The translations under genes were made by a program, and so were the position numbers. This document shows positions 6,935 through 54,010 of a DNA stretch of 64,000 nt, one piece after another. This DNA comes from Methanotrichaceae archaeon (GTDB lineage Archaea > Halobacteriota > Methanosarcinia > Methanotrichales > Methanotrichaceae). The notes beneath the pieces are model-generated. The model did not search any database, was not told the DNA's origin, and saw only the letters and a list, made by a program, of their open reading frames with translations. The stretch lies in contig CAVVKN010000004.1 of NCBI GenBank assembly GCA_963748825.1, positions 32,001-96,000 of the forward strand, read 5' to 3'. Each line of letters begins with the position of its first letter. Position 1 is the stretch's first letter.

Positions 6935-7008
6935 AAAATGGGAGGGCGGGCAAAGTCTATGATGAACCATTTAGGAGGAAACAATGGTCTTGGTCGACTT
7001 TTGCCCGT
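6935..7008 (-). ncRNA. Candidate anti-SD hairpin sRNA, copy A
   Basis: TATA TTTATAT at 7035-7029; stem CGGGCAAAAGUC/GACUUUGCCCG; inner stem ACCAUU/AAUGGU with loop GUUUCCUCCUA; tail CCCUCCCAUUUU. Confidence 0.65.
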
Positions 7009-11754: not shown

Positions 11755-11826
11755 AGCCAAGGTCCGGATTCGAACCGGAGTGGTAATGCTCTGCAGGCAT
11801 TTGCGTAGCCGCTCCGCCACCTTGGC
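11755..11826 (-). tRNA. tRNA-Cys(GCA)
   Basis: GCCAAGG acceptor stem; anticodon arm AATGC-CTGCAGA-GCATT; T-loop GGTTCGAATCC; no encoded CCA. Confidence 0.96.
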
Positions 11827-12121
11827 AAGGGGTATTGGCGTCCGACTTCTGTGTCGATCTGATTTAAACCTTTATCGGTTGGAGGCGCCCCTTGCGCCGC
11901 AACCTTGGGAGAGATGTCATCCCCTATAAAGATTGCCTTCGCGGCAAAAGATCTTGGGCAGAGTCAGGCCAGCACTTTTGTGACCTGCCAACCAGGGGGG
12001 CGCTGTGGATTCGGTGCAATCCCGCCCAGAACTCGATCATTCTGTTTTCGGGTTTACTTTTTCGAAGATTAAGCACTATTTTTTAGGGCGAAAACTATAT
12101 ATCGACAAAAGACTATATTAC

Positions 12122-12191
12122 GATCGGCAAAAGTCGAAGTAACTCTTTTCTCTCCCTCTGATCCCTGAGACTTTTGCCTCCCTCCTATTTT
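12122..12191 (+). ncRNA. Candidate anti-SD hairpin sRNA, copy B
   Basis: BRE/TATA CGAAAA-CTATATAT at 12089-12102; perfect 10-bp stem GGCAAAAGTC (12126-35)/GACTTTTGCC (12169-78); CU-rich loop; tail TCCCTCCT-ATTTT. Confidence 0.7.
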
Positions 12192-12269
12192 CATCTAGCT
12201 TTTTCCTTCATATTCCCCAGCAAGGAACATTTTTATATGGTTTGCCAGCCTCCTCGTGCCTGAAGCATT

Positions 12270-13616
12270 ATGGTCCTGGAAAACTTAGGCGGATCGCTGC
12301 GCAGTGCTCTAAAGAAGATTGCGTCGGCGAATAAGATCGACAAGGCTTTAGTAGACGATGCCGTGCGGGAGATTCAGCGGGCACTTTTGCAGGCAGATGT
12401 GAATGTGAAGCTAGTGATGCAGCTCTCCAACACCATCAAAGAGAGGGCGCTCAATGAAAAGCCGGCAGCGGGCATGAACCCACGCGAGCATGTCATCAAC
12501 ATCGTCTATAAGGAGCTGATCAACCTGGTAGGCCGTGGCTCGGACATTCCCCTGAAAAAGCAGAACATCATGCTCGTGGGCCTGCAAGGATCAGGAAAGA
12601 CCACCACTGCGGCGAAGCTTGCCACCTTCTTTCAACGAAAGGGGCTGCGAACGGCAGTCATCTGCGCAGATACCTTTCGAGCCGGTGCCTATGACCAGCT
12701 AAAAGCGCTCTGTGAAAAGCAGGGCATCTTTTTTTACGGAGACAGGGGCAATCCCGATGCGGCTGCTGTGGCGAAAGCCGGCCTGGAGGCCGCTAAGAAG
12801 TACGACGTTCGGATCGTCGATACCGCAGGAAGGCATGCCCTGGAAGGCGATCTGATCCAGGAGATGAAGGACATACATGCCGTGGTCAATGCCGAGCAAA
12901 AATTGCTGGTGATGGACGCCGCATTGGGCCAGCAGGCTTCCGAACAGGCGCGCGCCTTCAACGAAGCGGTGCAGATCACGGGCGTCATCATCACCAAGCT
13001 GGACGGCACAGCCAAGGGCGGCGGAGCACTCTCGGCCGTGGCGGAGACCAAGACCTCCGTGGCCTTCATTGGCATGGGCGAGACGCCGGCCGACCTGGAG
13101 AAGTTCGAGGCGGACCGCTTCATCTCCCGCATGCTGGGCATGGGCGATATCAAGACGCTCATCGAGAGGGCCCAGGAGGTGCAGACCGACAGCCAGGTGG
13201 ACGTTGAATCGCTCATGCGGGGCAAGTTCACCCTGAAAGATATGTACCAGCAGATGGAGGCCATGAACAAGCTGGGACCCTTAAAGCAGATCATGCAGAT
13301 GCTGCCCATGGGTGGCCTGGGGCTGGATCTTTCCGACAAAGAGTACCAGATGACCAAAGATCGCCTGGACAAGTACCGGGTGGTCATGGACTCCATGACG
13401 GCGAAAGAGCTTGAGGACCCCAAGATAATAACCGCATCGCGTATCAAGCGCATTTCCCGGGGCAGCGGCGCAACTCCGGATGTGGTTCGCGAGCTTCTCA
13501 AATCCCATCAGGCCATGCAAAAGGCAATCAAAGGCATGAGAGGCGGGGCCGGCAAGATGAATATGAAGCGCCTCATGAAGAGATTTTCTCCGGGAACGAA
13601 GACCGGAGAAATGTAA
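12270..13616 (+). CDS. srp54: Signal recognition particle protein SRP54
   Basis: [27 protein letters not shown], Met-rich M domain, [11 protein letters not shown]. Confidence 0.97.
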
Positions 13617-38500: not shown

Positions 38501-39183
38501 TGAACCAGTATAAAATCGAGGACTACTGGTCCATCCGGACCTTTGATATATCCATTGTCAATTCCACAGAGCTGGTCTACGGTTTGGAGAATGCCACAAC
38601 CATTTCCCTCAGTGCGGATAACCTGGCATATCTAAGAAAGAACTATTTCGGCTGGATGGTCTATGTGAGACCGCTCTATGAGAAAGAGGTCACCCCCGAC
38701 TATCCGCCCAATGGCATCAATCCGCGGACTGGAGGAGACTATGTAGTCTACCAGGACAACAAGAAGGGCAGCTGGGATATCTGGATGTGGAAGCTGGGGA
38801 AGAGTCCAGTGGCACTGGCAAGCGATGCCAGCGACCAGACGAATCCGGCTACGGACGGACATACTGTGGTCTGGCAGGACAATCGTAACGGCAATTGGGA
38901 TATCTTTGCCTACGACCTGAACACCAGCAAGGAAACACAGATAACCAACGATCTGGCGGATCAGACTAATCCCGATGTCGAAAACGGCGTCATTGTCTGG
39001 CAGGACAATCGTAACGGCAATTGGGATATCTATGTCTACGACCGTAATGTGCAAAAAGAGAAAGCTATTTGCACAGATGCAGGAAACCAGACACAACCTC
39101 GCATAAAGACGGGGCGAATCGTATGGACAGATGATCGCAGTGGAGACAAAGACATCTATCTTTACGAAAACTACATGCCATGA
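35539..39183 (+). CDS. Large cell-surface protein of about 42-aa beta-propeller repeats (Methanosarcinales type)
   Basis: Signal peptide; more than 20 repeats of Q..P.I.G..IVW.D.R.GN.DIY.YDL. Confidence 0.9.
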   Translation: MQKAIFIMIITAALLYVGAAGGAEYGKERPIAILVGSEQMQPAIDGHIVTWSDNRSGNFDIFMYDLEIGLEKWVCINPFFQINPAVSVERIVWQDMRAGNGDIYMYDAVNRTESAVIAAEGNQTQPDISKERVVWADDRDGTYNIRLYDLTTRKESIVSTGKGEQIEPKINDDKVVWMDKRSGDFDVYLYDIASGKESAVSTGPGDQSFPSVYGNIVAWADNRTGESDIAFMDLATRKTTTLTKPGMQTDPRVFGNFIAYLNNRTDINLYDIKSGDDFPLAPGTMKMEPDISDRGIVWTEYRQGPNDPDVRMYDLKILADVSITNGPFNHTNPSLAGDNIVWTDNRNEYFNVYLFNITTNKEQSITNSDFDHSSPDTSGENVIWTDKSKGNLNIFLYNLLTKKITQVTNGSSDNRYAMIDGNNIIWIDKRSGNEEIYLYDIAKGKEKQITTVKSLKLSPVINGDNIVWIDSRSGEDKWDVYLYNLTTGEETAICTNPARQAQPWIWGNTVVWADGRNKNWDIYTYDLSTKTERAVTINSANQGYPTVFNNYVAWLDVRGGDSDIYLNDLEKGVEIPVATLPMQQTPNDGKGDPDQVKPYLSSKVISDNKIVWMDNNNGFSQIKMRYINSDPLLLLSTDFPSTNGSLLVWSDNRRGNWNIFGFDFFTRAEKPISTGDWDQLYPKASGNTVVWTDYRNKNADIYMKDLTTGIESAIVTGKGDQTWPSISEDKVVWMDNSSGNWDVYMQDLANGESVAVYKGQGQQMYPIISGNLVVWQDNRNGDFDVYVKDLITGNETRLTEGGDQLYPDISGNTIAWEDAKSKDIAYYFWDKKWGKTYPRPGEQTNPVVSGKYISYVDGTDPDTSIRKLDISNWKDELVQVGPGQVKPSMDEKLVWLNTHSGRPRTVPVTAGQKSIICNAPGDQSYPVVGGNDQVGYYVAWMDNRTGKPDIYVYSLAQELELPIAAGPYEDMYPDIDGSIIAWMSRNPMNQYKIEDYWSIRTFDISIVNSTELVYGLENATTISLSADNLAYLRKNYFGWMVYVRPLYEKEVTPDYPPNGINPRTGGDYVVYQDNKKGSWDIWMWKLGKSPVALASDASDQTNPATDGHTVVWQDNRNGNWDIFAYDLNTSKETQITNDLADQTNPDVENGVIVWQDNRNGNWDIYVYDRNVQKEKAICTDAGNQTQPRIKTGRIVWTDDRSGDKDIYLYENYMP

Positions 39184-46194: not shown

Positions 46195-46261
46195 ATTAGG
46201 AGGGAGGCAAAAGTCCTGAAACATAGGAGGGAAAGAAATGAGTCTTCGACCTTTGCCAATC
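46195..46261 (-). ncRNA. Candidate anti-SD hairpin sRNA, copy C
   Basis: BRE/TATA CGAAAT-CCTTAAATA at 46296-46282; stem GGCAAAGGUC/GACUUUUGCC (one G-U); loop CAUUUCUUUCCCUCCUAUG; tail UCCCUCCU. Confidence 0.7.
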
Positions 46262-53935: not shown

Positions 53936-54010
53936 CGGGCGCGGGGGGATTCGAACCCCCGATCTACAGCTTAGGAGGCTGCCGCCTTATCCGGACTAGG
54001 CCACGCGCCC
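53936..54010 (-). tRNA. tRNA-Arg(CCT)
   Basis: GGGCGCG acceptor stem; anticodon arm GCAGC-CTCCTAA-GCTGT; GGTTCGAATCC. Confidence 0.96.

Follow-up and report, generated by a model that had tools for sequence, protein, structure and literature searches.

An apparently undescribed multicopy family of putative anti-Shine-Dalgarno small RNA genes in Methanotrichaceae

We examined a 64,000-nt stretch of the genome of a Methanotrichaceae archaeon (assembly GCA_963748825.1, contig CAVVKN010000004.1, positions 32,001 to 96,000; hereafter the window), in which three intergenic loci, named A, B and C, carry the same hairpin with a CU-rich loop behind the same kind of promoter. We propose that these loci and their relatives elsewhere in the genome are probably independent small RNA (sRNA) genes of ~60-80 nt, whose products would act in trans as translational repressors by pairing with Shine-Dalgarno (SD) sequences. 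They appear to form an undescribed sRNA family of a known kind, that of sibling base-pairing sRNAs with anti-SD sequences. The proposal draws on the conservation of an RNA helix, on the anti-SD content of loop and tail, and on one copy whose loop matches, and co-varies with, the start region of a conserved gene.

One architecture at three loci

A first-pass annotation of this DNA had described three unlinked loci with one architecture, and our re-reading of the coordinates found them as described. Common to all three are a promoter with B recognition element (BRE) and TATA box, a 10-bp stem GGCAAARGUC/GACUUUUGCC, a CU-rich loop and a UCCCUCCU tail. The features are as follows (window coordinates).

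Copy B
12089-12094, plus strand: BRE-like CGAAAA, read from the sequence
12095-12102, plus strand: TATA box CTATATAT, read from the sequence
12103-12117, plus strand: promoter-proximal box CGACAAAAGACTATA, between the TATA box and the presumed start (family consensus CGGCAATTGnCGTAT)
12126-12135, plus strand: 5' stem arm GGCAAAAGUC (DNA GGCAAAAGTC), part of a 10-nt inverted repeat with 100% complementarity, placed by this repeat, by the fold and by helix statistics
12136-12168, plus strand: loop of 33 nt that opens with the conserved GA; the remainder is CU-rich and includes CUCUCCCUCU and CCCUGA
12169-12178, plus strand: 3' stem arm GACUUUUGCC (DNA GACTTTTGCC), 10 of 10 bp with the 5' arm
12179-12187, plus strand: anti-SD-like tail UCCCUCCUA (DNA TCCCTCCTA), which has CCUCCUA in common with the 3' end region of 16S rRNA
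12188-12191, plus strand: TTTT (UUUU in RNA) after the tail, a possible terminator

Copy C
46296-46292, minus strand: CGAAA of the promoter
46290-46282, minus strand: TATA box CCTTAAATA
46281-46266, minus strand: promoter box CGGCGATTGACGTATA
46197-46257, minus strand: RNA
46257-46248 and 46215-46206, minus strand: stem, with one G-U pair
46247-46216, minus strand: loop
46225-46242, minus strand: segment CUCAUUUCUUUCCCUCCU against a translation initiation region, an 18-nt perfect complement of AGGAGGGAAAGAAAUGAG
46205-46197, minus strand: tail UCCCUCCUA, identical to that of B

Copy A
7036-7029, minus strand: TATA box CTTTATAT without upstream CGAAA; the promoter is kept in A-type orthologues of five other genomes
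6935-7005, minus strand: RNA
7005-6996 and 6957-6949, minus strand: stem, with the 3' arm one base shorter, giving one bulge
6995-6958, minus strand: loop, with an inner hairpin presenting UUUCCUCCUA
6948-6935, minus strand: tail CGCCCUCCCAUUUU (DNA CGCCCTCCCATTTT)

The stem is perfect in B, has one G-U pair in C and one bulge in A, all as first annotated; in A, G-C pairs can extend it to 7007/6947. The 19-mer GACTTTTGCCTCCCTCCTA reported as common to B and C is present in both. The spacing from TATA box to start was first given as 19-20 nt with the start of B placed at 12122; slightly more, 23 nt, separates the end of this TATA box from the first G of the stem. Transcription of B is presumed to start within a few bases upstream of the 5' stem arm. 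As a caveat, the loop of B contains CUCCCUC and CCCUGA and lacks a perfect CCUCC.

A sibling family with its own promoter type

In the whole assembly (25 contigs, 2.88 Mb; genome G000 below), a loose regular expression gave 31 matches, 20 of which are the two strands of 11 full-architecture loci. The remaining 11 are unrelated and lie mostly within coding sequence. A covariance model built from the alignment of the 11 genome copies (R1) returned 19 matches in the genome at E <= 1, with 14 of these at E <= 7.5e-5, in line with the first-pass expectation of further copies genome-wide. The three window copies scored 2.4e-10, 1.0e-11 (copy C) and 9.2e-8 in this search, and two further matches are plausible degenerate copies (E = 0.02 and 0.10). 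Outside the window, four copies stand head to tail at G000:C14:28296-28783 with ~125-180-nt spacing, each with its own TATA box. Tandem clusters also occur elsewhere, with five copies at locus L109, four at L064 and three in genome G005 near 938.5 kb.

Apart from four recent duplicates, the copies resemble each other no further than the BRE on one side and the tail on the other, so that the repeated unit is a ~105-bp segment of promoter plus RNA. Of 40 other genomes in the genus, 24 have a match to copies of the A type, and C-type loops occur in 27 of 34. The loops form groups that are kept across species yet differ between paralogues. The original suggestion of a paralogous sRNA gene family with a constant scaffold and variable loops is supported. 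Copy B occupies its position upstream of SRP54 in this genome only, among 30 genomes of the family, apart from a decayed copy in G056; it is absent in 28 of the 30, and therefore copies have been both gained and lost. The decayed copy (L204), also upstream of SRP54, keeps the promoter, the 5' arm and the loop CCUCCCUCC and has lost the 3' arm; it looks like a pseudogene of the family.

A BRE/TATA promoter lies at a fixed distance upstream of all 14 genome copies and is likewise seen in the consensus of 103 distinct upstream regions. Between TATA box and stem, each genome copy has the further conserved box CGGCAATTGnCGTAT. Matches to this box in the genome (<=2 mismatches, after BRE/TATA) fall at sRNA promoters only, with one TATA-like exception at C3:125409, and none was found at protein-gene promoters. 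At the exception, G000:C3:125409, a TATA-like stretch is followed by CGGCAATTGAAATAT and then by a CCUCC-containing sequence without a recognisable stem; this may be a remnant or a very divergent member. We also observed that the box in B, written ATCGACAAAAG (window 12101-12133; consensus tCGGCAATTGnCG), resembles the 5' end of the RNA, ATCGGCAAAAG, ~22 bp downstream, like two direct half-sites. The conservation of the stem sequence might be due to this likeness between promoter box and RNA 5' end. A separate recurrence in the window, ACGGCAATTGGGATAT at 38888-38903 and 39014-39029 (126 nt apart, with near-identical surroundings), has no relation to the promoter box of the sRNAs and probably reflects tandem repeats within a protein domain.

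An RNA helix on the CU-rich strand

Fold z-scores for the three window copies were -3.7, -2.6 and -4.1 on the CU-rich strand and -1.0, -0.4 and -1.6 on the complement. Helix statistics were computed on 33 aligned matches chosen without an exact-stem filter, two rows of which are reverse-strand echoes. Among 327 helix cells 97.6% were paired, and the value fell to 41-55% when the partner column was slid. Changes on both sides were found at 4 of the 10 stem pairs (in 8 cells), and the fourth pair runs through a series from A-U over G-U to G-C across rows. A further 21 cells hold G-U or U-G, at which the other strand would hold A.C mismatches. The G-U pairs, the compensatory stem changes and the uniform promoter orientation all point to the CU-rich strand as that of the RNA. 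Three of the ten pairs are invariant and the arms are identical in distant genera. Therefore, the stem is constrained in sequence besides pairing.

Anti-Shine-Dalgarno content of loop and tail

The content of loop and tail was read from an alignment of 108 members, in which stems are biased by exact-pattern selection and loops are not. CCTCC is present in 98 of the 108 members, twice in 82, and within 8 nt after the 3' arm in 75. The loop core U-C-C-C-U-C-C-U-A is 72-100% conserved per position, and the GA after the 5' arm 93-99%. Loop and tail are unpaired in predicted folds. The 3' end region of 16S rRNA in this genome reads GGAUCACCUCCUAA (...CACCUCCUAA); since it has the same CCUCC core, loop and tail should be able to pair with SD sequences. 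Additionally, among 118 distinct loops, 43 have a CAU at a distance of 3-9 nt on the 5' side of CCUCC, as compared to 19.9 +/- 4.0 with shuffled flanks (maximum 33 in 1000), a contrast that is inflated by related sequences. CAU-N-CCUCC is the mirror image of GGAGG-N-AUG.

A putative target for copy C and its co-variation

We compared the 14 loops with 2623 crude start regions, derived from crude open reading frame (ORF) calls. In copy C, CUCAUUUCUUUCCCUCCU is perfectly complementary over 18 nt to AGGAGGGAAAGAAAUGAG, which, in the gene at G000:C9:270529-271257, covers the SD sequence, spacer and AUG together with two bases of the second codon. Pairing is predicted at -34 to -35 kcal/mol versus a median of -13. 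When the C-rich core was held fixed and the flanks were shuffled 500 times, no shuffle reached 18 nt (0/500; maximum 15). The gene is one of three tandem near-identical genes (99-100%; G000:C9:268210-271257), and the other two keep 14 nt of complementarity; a fourth paralogue with 82% identity lies 3 kb further on. The gene encodes a signal-peptide protein of 242 aa, for which searches of Pfam, NCBIfam and the ESM Atlas gave no usable match. The sheath protein MspA, of 60.9 kDa (PMC6242892), was considered and excluded by size. Members of the target protein family were found in 41 of 41 Methanotrichaceae genomes searched, usually in several copies, and their genes retain the start region GGAGGUGGGAA(A/C)GAAAUGAG in different genera.

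The two alternative bases of the start region and the corresponding sRNA words were counted in one set of 81 genomes, in which g1 denotes the genus of this genome.

sRNA word UCAUUUCUUUCC after GUCGA (U-type): 28 genomes, all of genus g1
target GGGAAAGAAAUG, word GGGAAAGAARUGARRA (A-type): 29 genomes, all g1; one of the two matches in G097 is an sRNA gene
sRNA word UCAUUUCGUUCC (G-type): 3 genomes only, G145 and G167 (genus g17) and G166 (g19)
target GGGAACGAAAUG, word GGGAACGAARUGARRA: 23 genomes, 3 of 34 in g1 plus 11 other genera, including G145, G167 and G166

Within g1 (35 genomes including this one), 25 genomes have both the U-type sRNA and the A-type target; 3 have just the sRNA, 4 just the target, and 3 lack both. 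All three G-type sRNAs belong fully to the family, and each can pair with the start region of its own genome, over 15, 14 and 16 nt, respectively. A loop CCCAC faces a GUGGG in the target in G167. Both G145 and G167 have lost the generic CCUCC of the loop and kept the specific pairing to spacer and AUG. This pattern is what base pairing would predict.

For the other copies several candidates were followed and dropped. Genes of the MC1 chromatin protein pair well with the CCUCCUACAC motif in this genome and were rejected as a conserved target because, of the 81 genomes, just G000 (two sites) and G126 (one site) contain the 14-mer of the start region, the 26 other matches being sRNA genes. A gene resembling A-type ATPase subunit H/G (C9:178329), matched by copy C2_92672 at -37 kcal/mol, has a contiguous match of 11 nt, a length reached by 391/500 shuffles. 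The 13-nt match of C14_28476 to C17:11113 falls in a spurious ORF; the real gene there, on the other strand, encodes a 4Fe-4S membrane protein.

Distribution and novelty

The first-pass annotation had recommended a covariance-model search of relatives. R1 found matches in all 24 other genomes searched in the same genus (4-13 each, E <= 0.001) and in all 74 other genomes of the family (Methanothrix/Methanotrichaceae in public records; 15 genera, 1-13 matches each), several hundred matches altogether. Outside the family, matches were seen in 7 of 67 genomes of a second family (f3; 6 of 9 in genus g8 and 1 of 6 in g26) and in 1 of 2 of a third (f5), always one per genome. R1 gave no match in 3 genomes of family f2, 4 of f4 and 18 of genus g6, and in five genomes from three further genera of the class no match scored below E = 0.2.

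A scan of public genomes for the exact arm pattern recovered at least 119 stretches. The 80 matches listed with titles are mostly from Methanothrix, Methanosaeta, Methanotrichaceae or a Methanosarcinales archaeon; among them are also 3 from Methanolobus, 3 from the anaerobic methanotrophs ANME-2/Methanocomedens, 1 from a Methanobacteriota archaeon and 5 from bacteria. Five bacterial matches are, by our own estimate, about what chance would give. The bacterial matches (L068 and L123 in one Thermoguttaceae metagenome-assembled genome; L066, L081, L060) form longer perfect hairpins of up to 15 bp, and both Thermoguttaceae matches are preceded by the same word agttaggaaaa; they may be an unrelated bacterial repeat family or contamination.

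The Methanolobus and ANME-2 (Methanocomedens) hairpin has arms identical to those of the family (GGCAAARGUCGA / GACUUUUGCC), its own TATA box ~24 nt upstream and a C-rich loop motif, AUCCCCUC. R1 E-values, computed within these loci, were 5e-8 to 4.5e-6. Unlike the Methanotrichaceae members, it is present as a single copy per genome, has a longer, AU-rich loop and no CCUCC tail, and is U-rich directly after the stem. The single-copy form is probably ancestral to the expanded Methanotrichaceae family.

The first-pass annotation had not recognised a named family, and no Rfam family reached its threshold at these loci. Over the window, Rfam 15 gave only two tRNAs at threshold, and the best match at the B locus was Ocean-VII on the opposite strand, with 23.1 bits versus a threshold of 53.5. 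Our literature searches found no description of such an sRNA family. A tRNA gene lies at 11755-11826 (minus strand), ~300 nt upstream of sRNA B, and a second one at 53936-54010 (minus strand).

Proposed mode of action and alternative readings

We propose that each locus would be an sRNA gene in its own right, producing an RNA of ~60-80 nt from an archaeal BRE/TATA promoter with a family-specific box. The RNA is predicted to fold into a single long-loop hairpin, whose nearly invariant 10-bp stem (GGCAAARGUC/GACUUUUGCC) would hold open a CU-rich loop of 25-40 nt, followed by the single-stranded UCCCUCCU tail. The CCUCC of loop and tail would pair with SD sequences, and the variable bases beside the loop motif would carry the duplex on across the spacer into the start codon of individual mRNAs. 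Such pairing would block ribosome binding and result in translational repression in trans, with the siblings (14 in this genome) sharing out the targets. The data show the family with its promoters and distribution, the helix and its strand, and, for one subfamily, co-varying complementarity to a conserved translation start region; that the loci are transcribed, where the RNAs begin and end, that they repress and do not activate, and which mRNAs the remaining siblings address are points that we infer. Masking of ribosome-binding sites, the function suggested at first pass, is supported in silico for the copy C subfamily, by the 18-nt pairing with SD and AUG and by its co-variation, but not for B and the 12 others, whose matches do not exceed chance.

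Several observations weigh against the proposal of trans-acting repressors. The longest start-region matches of the other 13 copies (10 nt for B, 11 nt for A, 10-13 nt for the rest) all lie within the shuffle range, and the 10 nt of B are reached by 486/500 shuffles. SD use appears moderate, with GGAGG 3-12 nt before the start in 411 of the 2623 crude starts. UAGGAGGGA, the partner of the conserved UCCCUCCUA, has 6 genomic sites outside sRNA genes and occurs in 1 of the 2623 start regions, and we rejected it as a widespread target word on account of these few sites. The target gene calls are crude ORFs, one apparent match lying in a spurious ORF. The co-variation may rest on one or two evolutionary events, as related genomes are non-independent. 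The stem sequence is conserved from Methanotrichaceae to Methanolobus and ANME-2, which a purely structural scaffold does not explain. Finally, four metatranscriptome contig sets contained relatives 90-97% identical over SRP54, none of which spans 12018-12239; these sets are neutral on transcription.

Given the near-invariant scaffold, the promoter box common to all siblings and their number, a more modular system is conceivable. In an extended picture, Methanotrichaceae would possess a programmable translation control of their own: a dedicated protein would bind the invariant GGCAAARGUCGA/GACUUUUGCC hairpin, while an interchangeable loop reads SD, spacer and AUG. New regulators would arise by duplication of the ~105-bp cassette and rewriting of the loop, and all siblings would stand under one transcription factor or under feedback by the protein through the shared box. 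The hairpin sequence would then have been conserved back to the common ancestor with Methanolobus and ANME-2. We regard this as a speculative and rather unlikely extension.

A partner protein also figures in the possibility that the RNAs are decoys and not guides, the hairpin and repeated CCUCC titrating a stem-binding protein or SD-rich mRNAs in bulk, much as RNAs of the CsrB/RsmZ type sequester a protein; a large number of abundant siblings would then adjust SD-dependent translation globally. Such a role would fit a stem sequence that is almost invariant across families, with 3 of 10 pairs never varying and identical arms in the outgroups, and the strongly conserved GA behind the 5' arm. High copy number and tandem clusters would suit a dosage role, and most copies lack a specific target. 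On the other hand, the loops differ between paralogues and are kept within orthologous groups, and one loop group follows the substitutions of its target. The sRNAs of G145 and G167, which pair with spacer and AUG without a loop CCUCC, fit guiding and not bulk titration, and the partner protein is so far hypothetical. We consider decoys an unlikely explanation.

Repeats that act at the DNA level and have no RNA function of their own, either mobile-element remnants or a protein-binding promoter/operator cassette, could explain the turnover of positions seen for B among the 30 family genomes, and the likeness of promoter box and 5' stem arm could then mark two direct half-sites ~22 bp apart. However, the G-U pairs and the changes on both sides of the stem maintain an RNA helix on one strand only, and the CCUCC and CAU of the loops and the co-variation with the target would be meaningless in DNA. 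The A-type and C-type copies are kept across most of the genus. Further, the repeated unit begins with BRE/TATA and finishes with the CCUCCU tail, so that its ends are not inverted repeats, and a direct-repeat check found no target-site duplications flanking the three window loci, as the first reading had stated. Two of the outcomes that had been named as fatal to an sRNA family, miniature inverted-repeat transposable elements and plain terminators, are not what we see: each copy has a promoter, and inverted ends and target-site duplications are lacking. A function in DNA alone therefore seems very improbable.

We give equally little credence to a function in cis, as leader or attenuator of the downstream gene (e.g., SRP54 behind B) or as terminator of the upstream gene. 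SRP54 does follow B on the same strand after 80 nt, 5 of 11 loci have a co-oriented ORF next to them, and T-runs follow A and B. At the other 6 of the 11, though, the downstream ORF is convergent, and the co-oriented ones are mostly 335-699 nt away (crude ORF calls), while every copy has its own promoter and the flanking genes are unrelated. SRP54 has its own TATA box ~30 nt before the ATG, kept in four genomes irrespective of the presence of the sRNA, and in two the upstream sequence is unrelated. A terminator would not be expected where the upstream ORF is on the opposite strand, as it is at 5 of 11 loci (the C14 tandem cluster counted once). We also observed, between the TATA box and ATG of SRP54 (12270-13616, plus strand; region 12228-12281), a segment TTTGCCAGCCTCCT at 12241-12254 that resembles the sRNA 3' arm and tail, TTTGCCTCCCTCCT.

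A C/D-box or H/ACA guide RNA, or another known structured RNA class, can practically be dismissed: in B, CUGA directly precedes the 3' arm and SNORD12 is the one snoRNA match in Rfam, a weak one at 13 bits (E = 8), but neither a C box (consensus RUGAUGA) nor a D box is conserved, the bases beside the 3' arm vary in the 11-copy and 108-member alignments, ACA is absent after the stem and no Rfam family reaches threshold.

Relation to known systems and significance

The mode of action proposed here has a precedent in Methanosarcina mazei, where sRNA41 and loop 2 of sRNA154 have a CU-rich anti-SD content. Both are reported to repress translation by masking ribosome-binding sites, sRNA41 within polycistronic mRNAs (PMC5867862). 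Like the family described here, they are archaeal intergenic sRNAs, and they come from a related methanogen order. Unlike sRNA41, the present family counts up to 14 siblings in a genome, all built on a single constant hairpin and driven by a promoter of one type. Neither Rfam nor R1, the latter in five genomes of three other genera of the class, revealed homology to M. mazei sRNA41 or sRNA162, and sRNA41 was compared by description only. In Methanolobus psychrophilus R15, nine conserved cold-induced sRNAs are reported to have a shared 'cold box' motif upstream of their promoters (PMC5378194). By that description they too form a conserved family with several copies, in another methanogen of this class; in contrast, outside Methanotrichaceae no genome has more than one R1 match.

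The proposed mechanism is also that of sibling CU-rich sRNAs in bacteria. Listeria LhrC1-5/Rli22/Rli33-1, Staphylococcus RsaE and other sRNAs with UCCC motifs are paralogous, some in tandem, and pair with SD regions through C-rich motifs in loops or single strands, thereby blocking translation. In contrast to these, the family described here is archaeal with BRE/TATA promoters, consists of a single long-loop hairpin with an invariant stem, extends a full CCUCC anti-SD core to an anti-AUG sequence, and reaches a higher copy number.

Methanothrix species are among the main converters of acetate to methane on Earth and have almost no genetics, and to our knowledge no regulatory RNAs of Methanothrix have been described. 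A testable pair is at hand in copy C and the translation start of the conserved secreted protein, whose genes are multicopy, together with a natural series of compensatory variants of sRNA and target. The near-invariant scaffold, which is common to Methanolobus and ANME-2, points to a conserved partner and bears on the question of which proteins chaperone archaeal base-pairing sRNAs. Being present in every Methanotrichaceae genome searched, the family would be the first post-transcriptional regulon of this group and among the largest archaeal families of sibling sRNAs.

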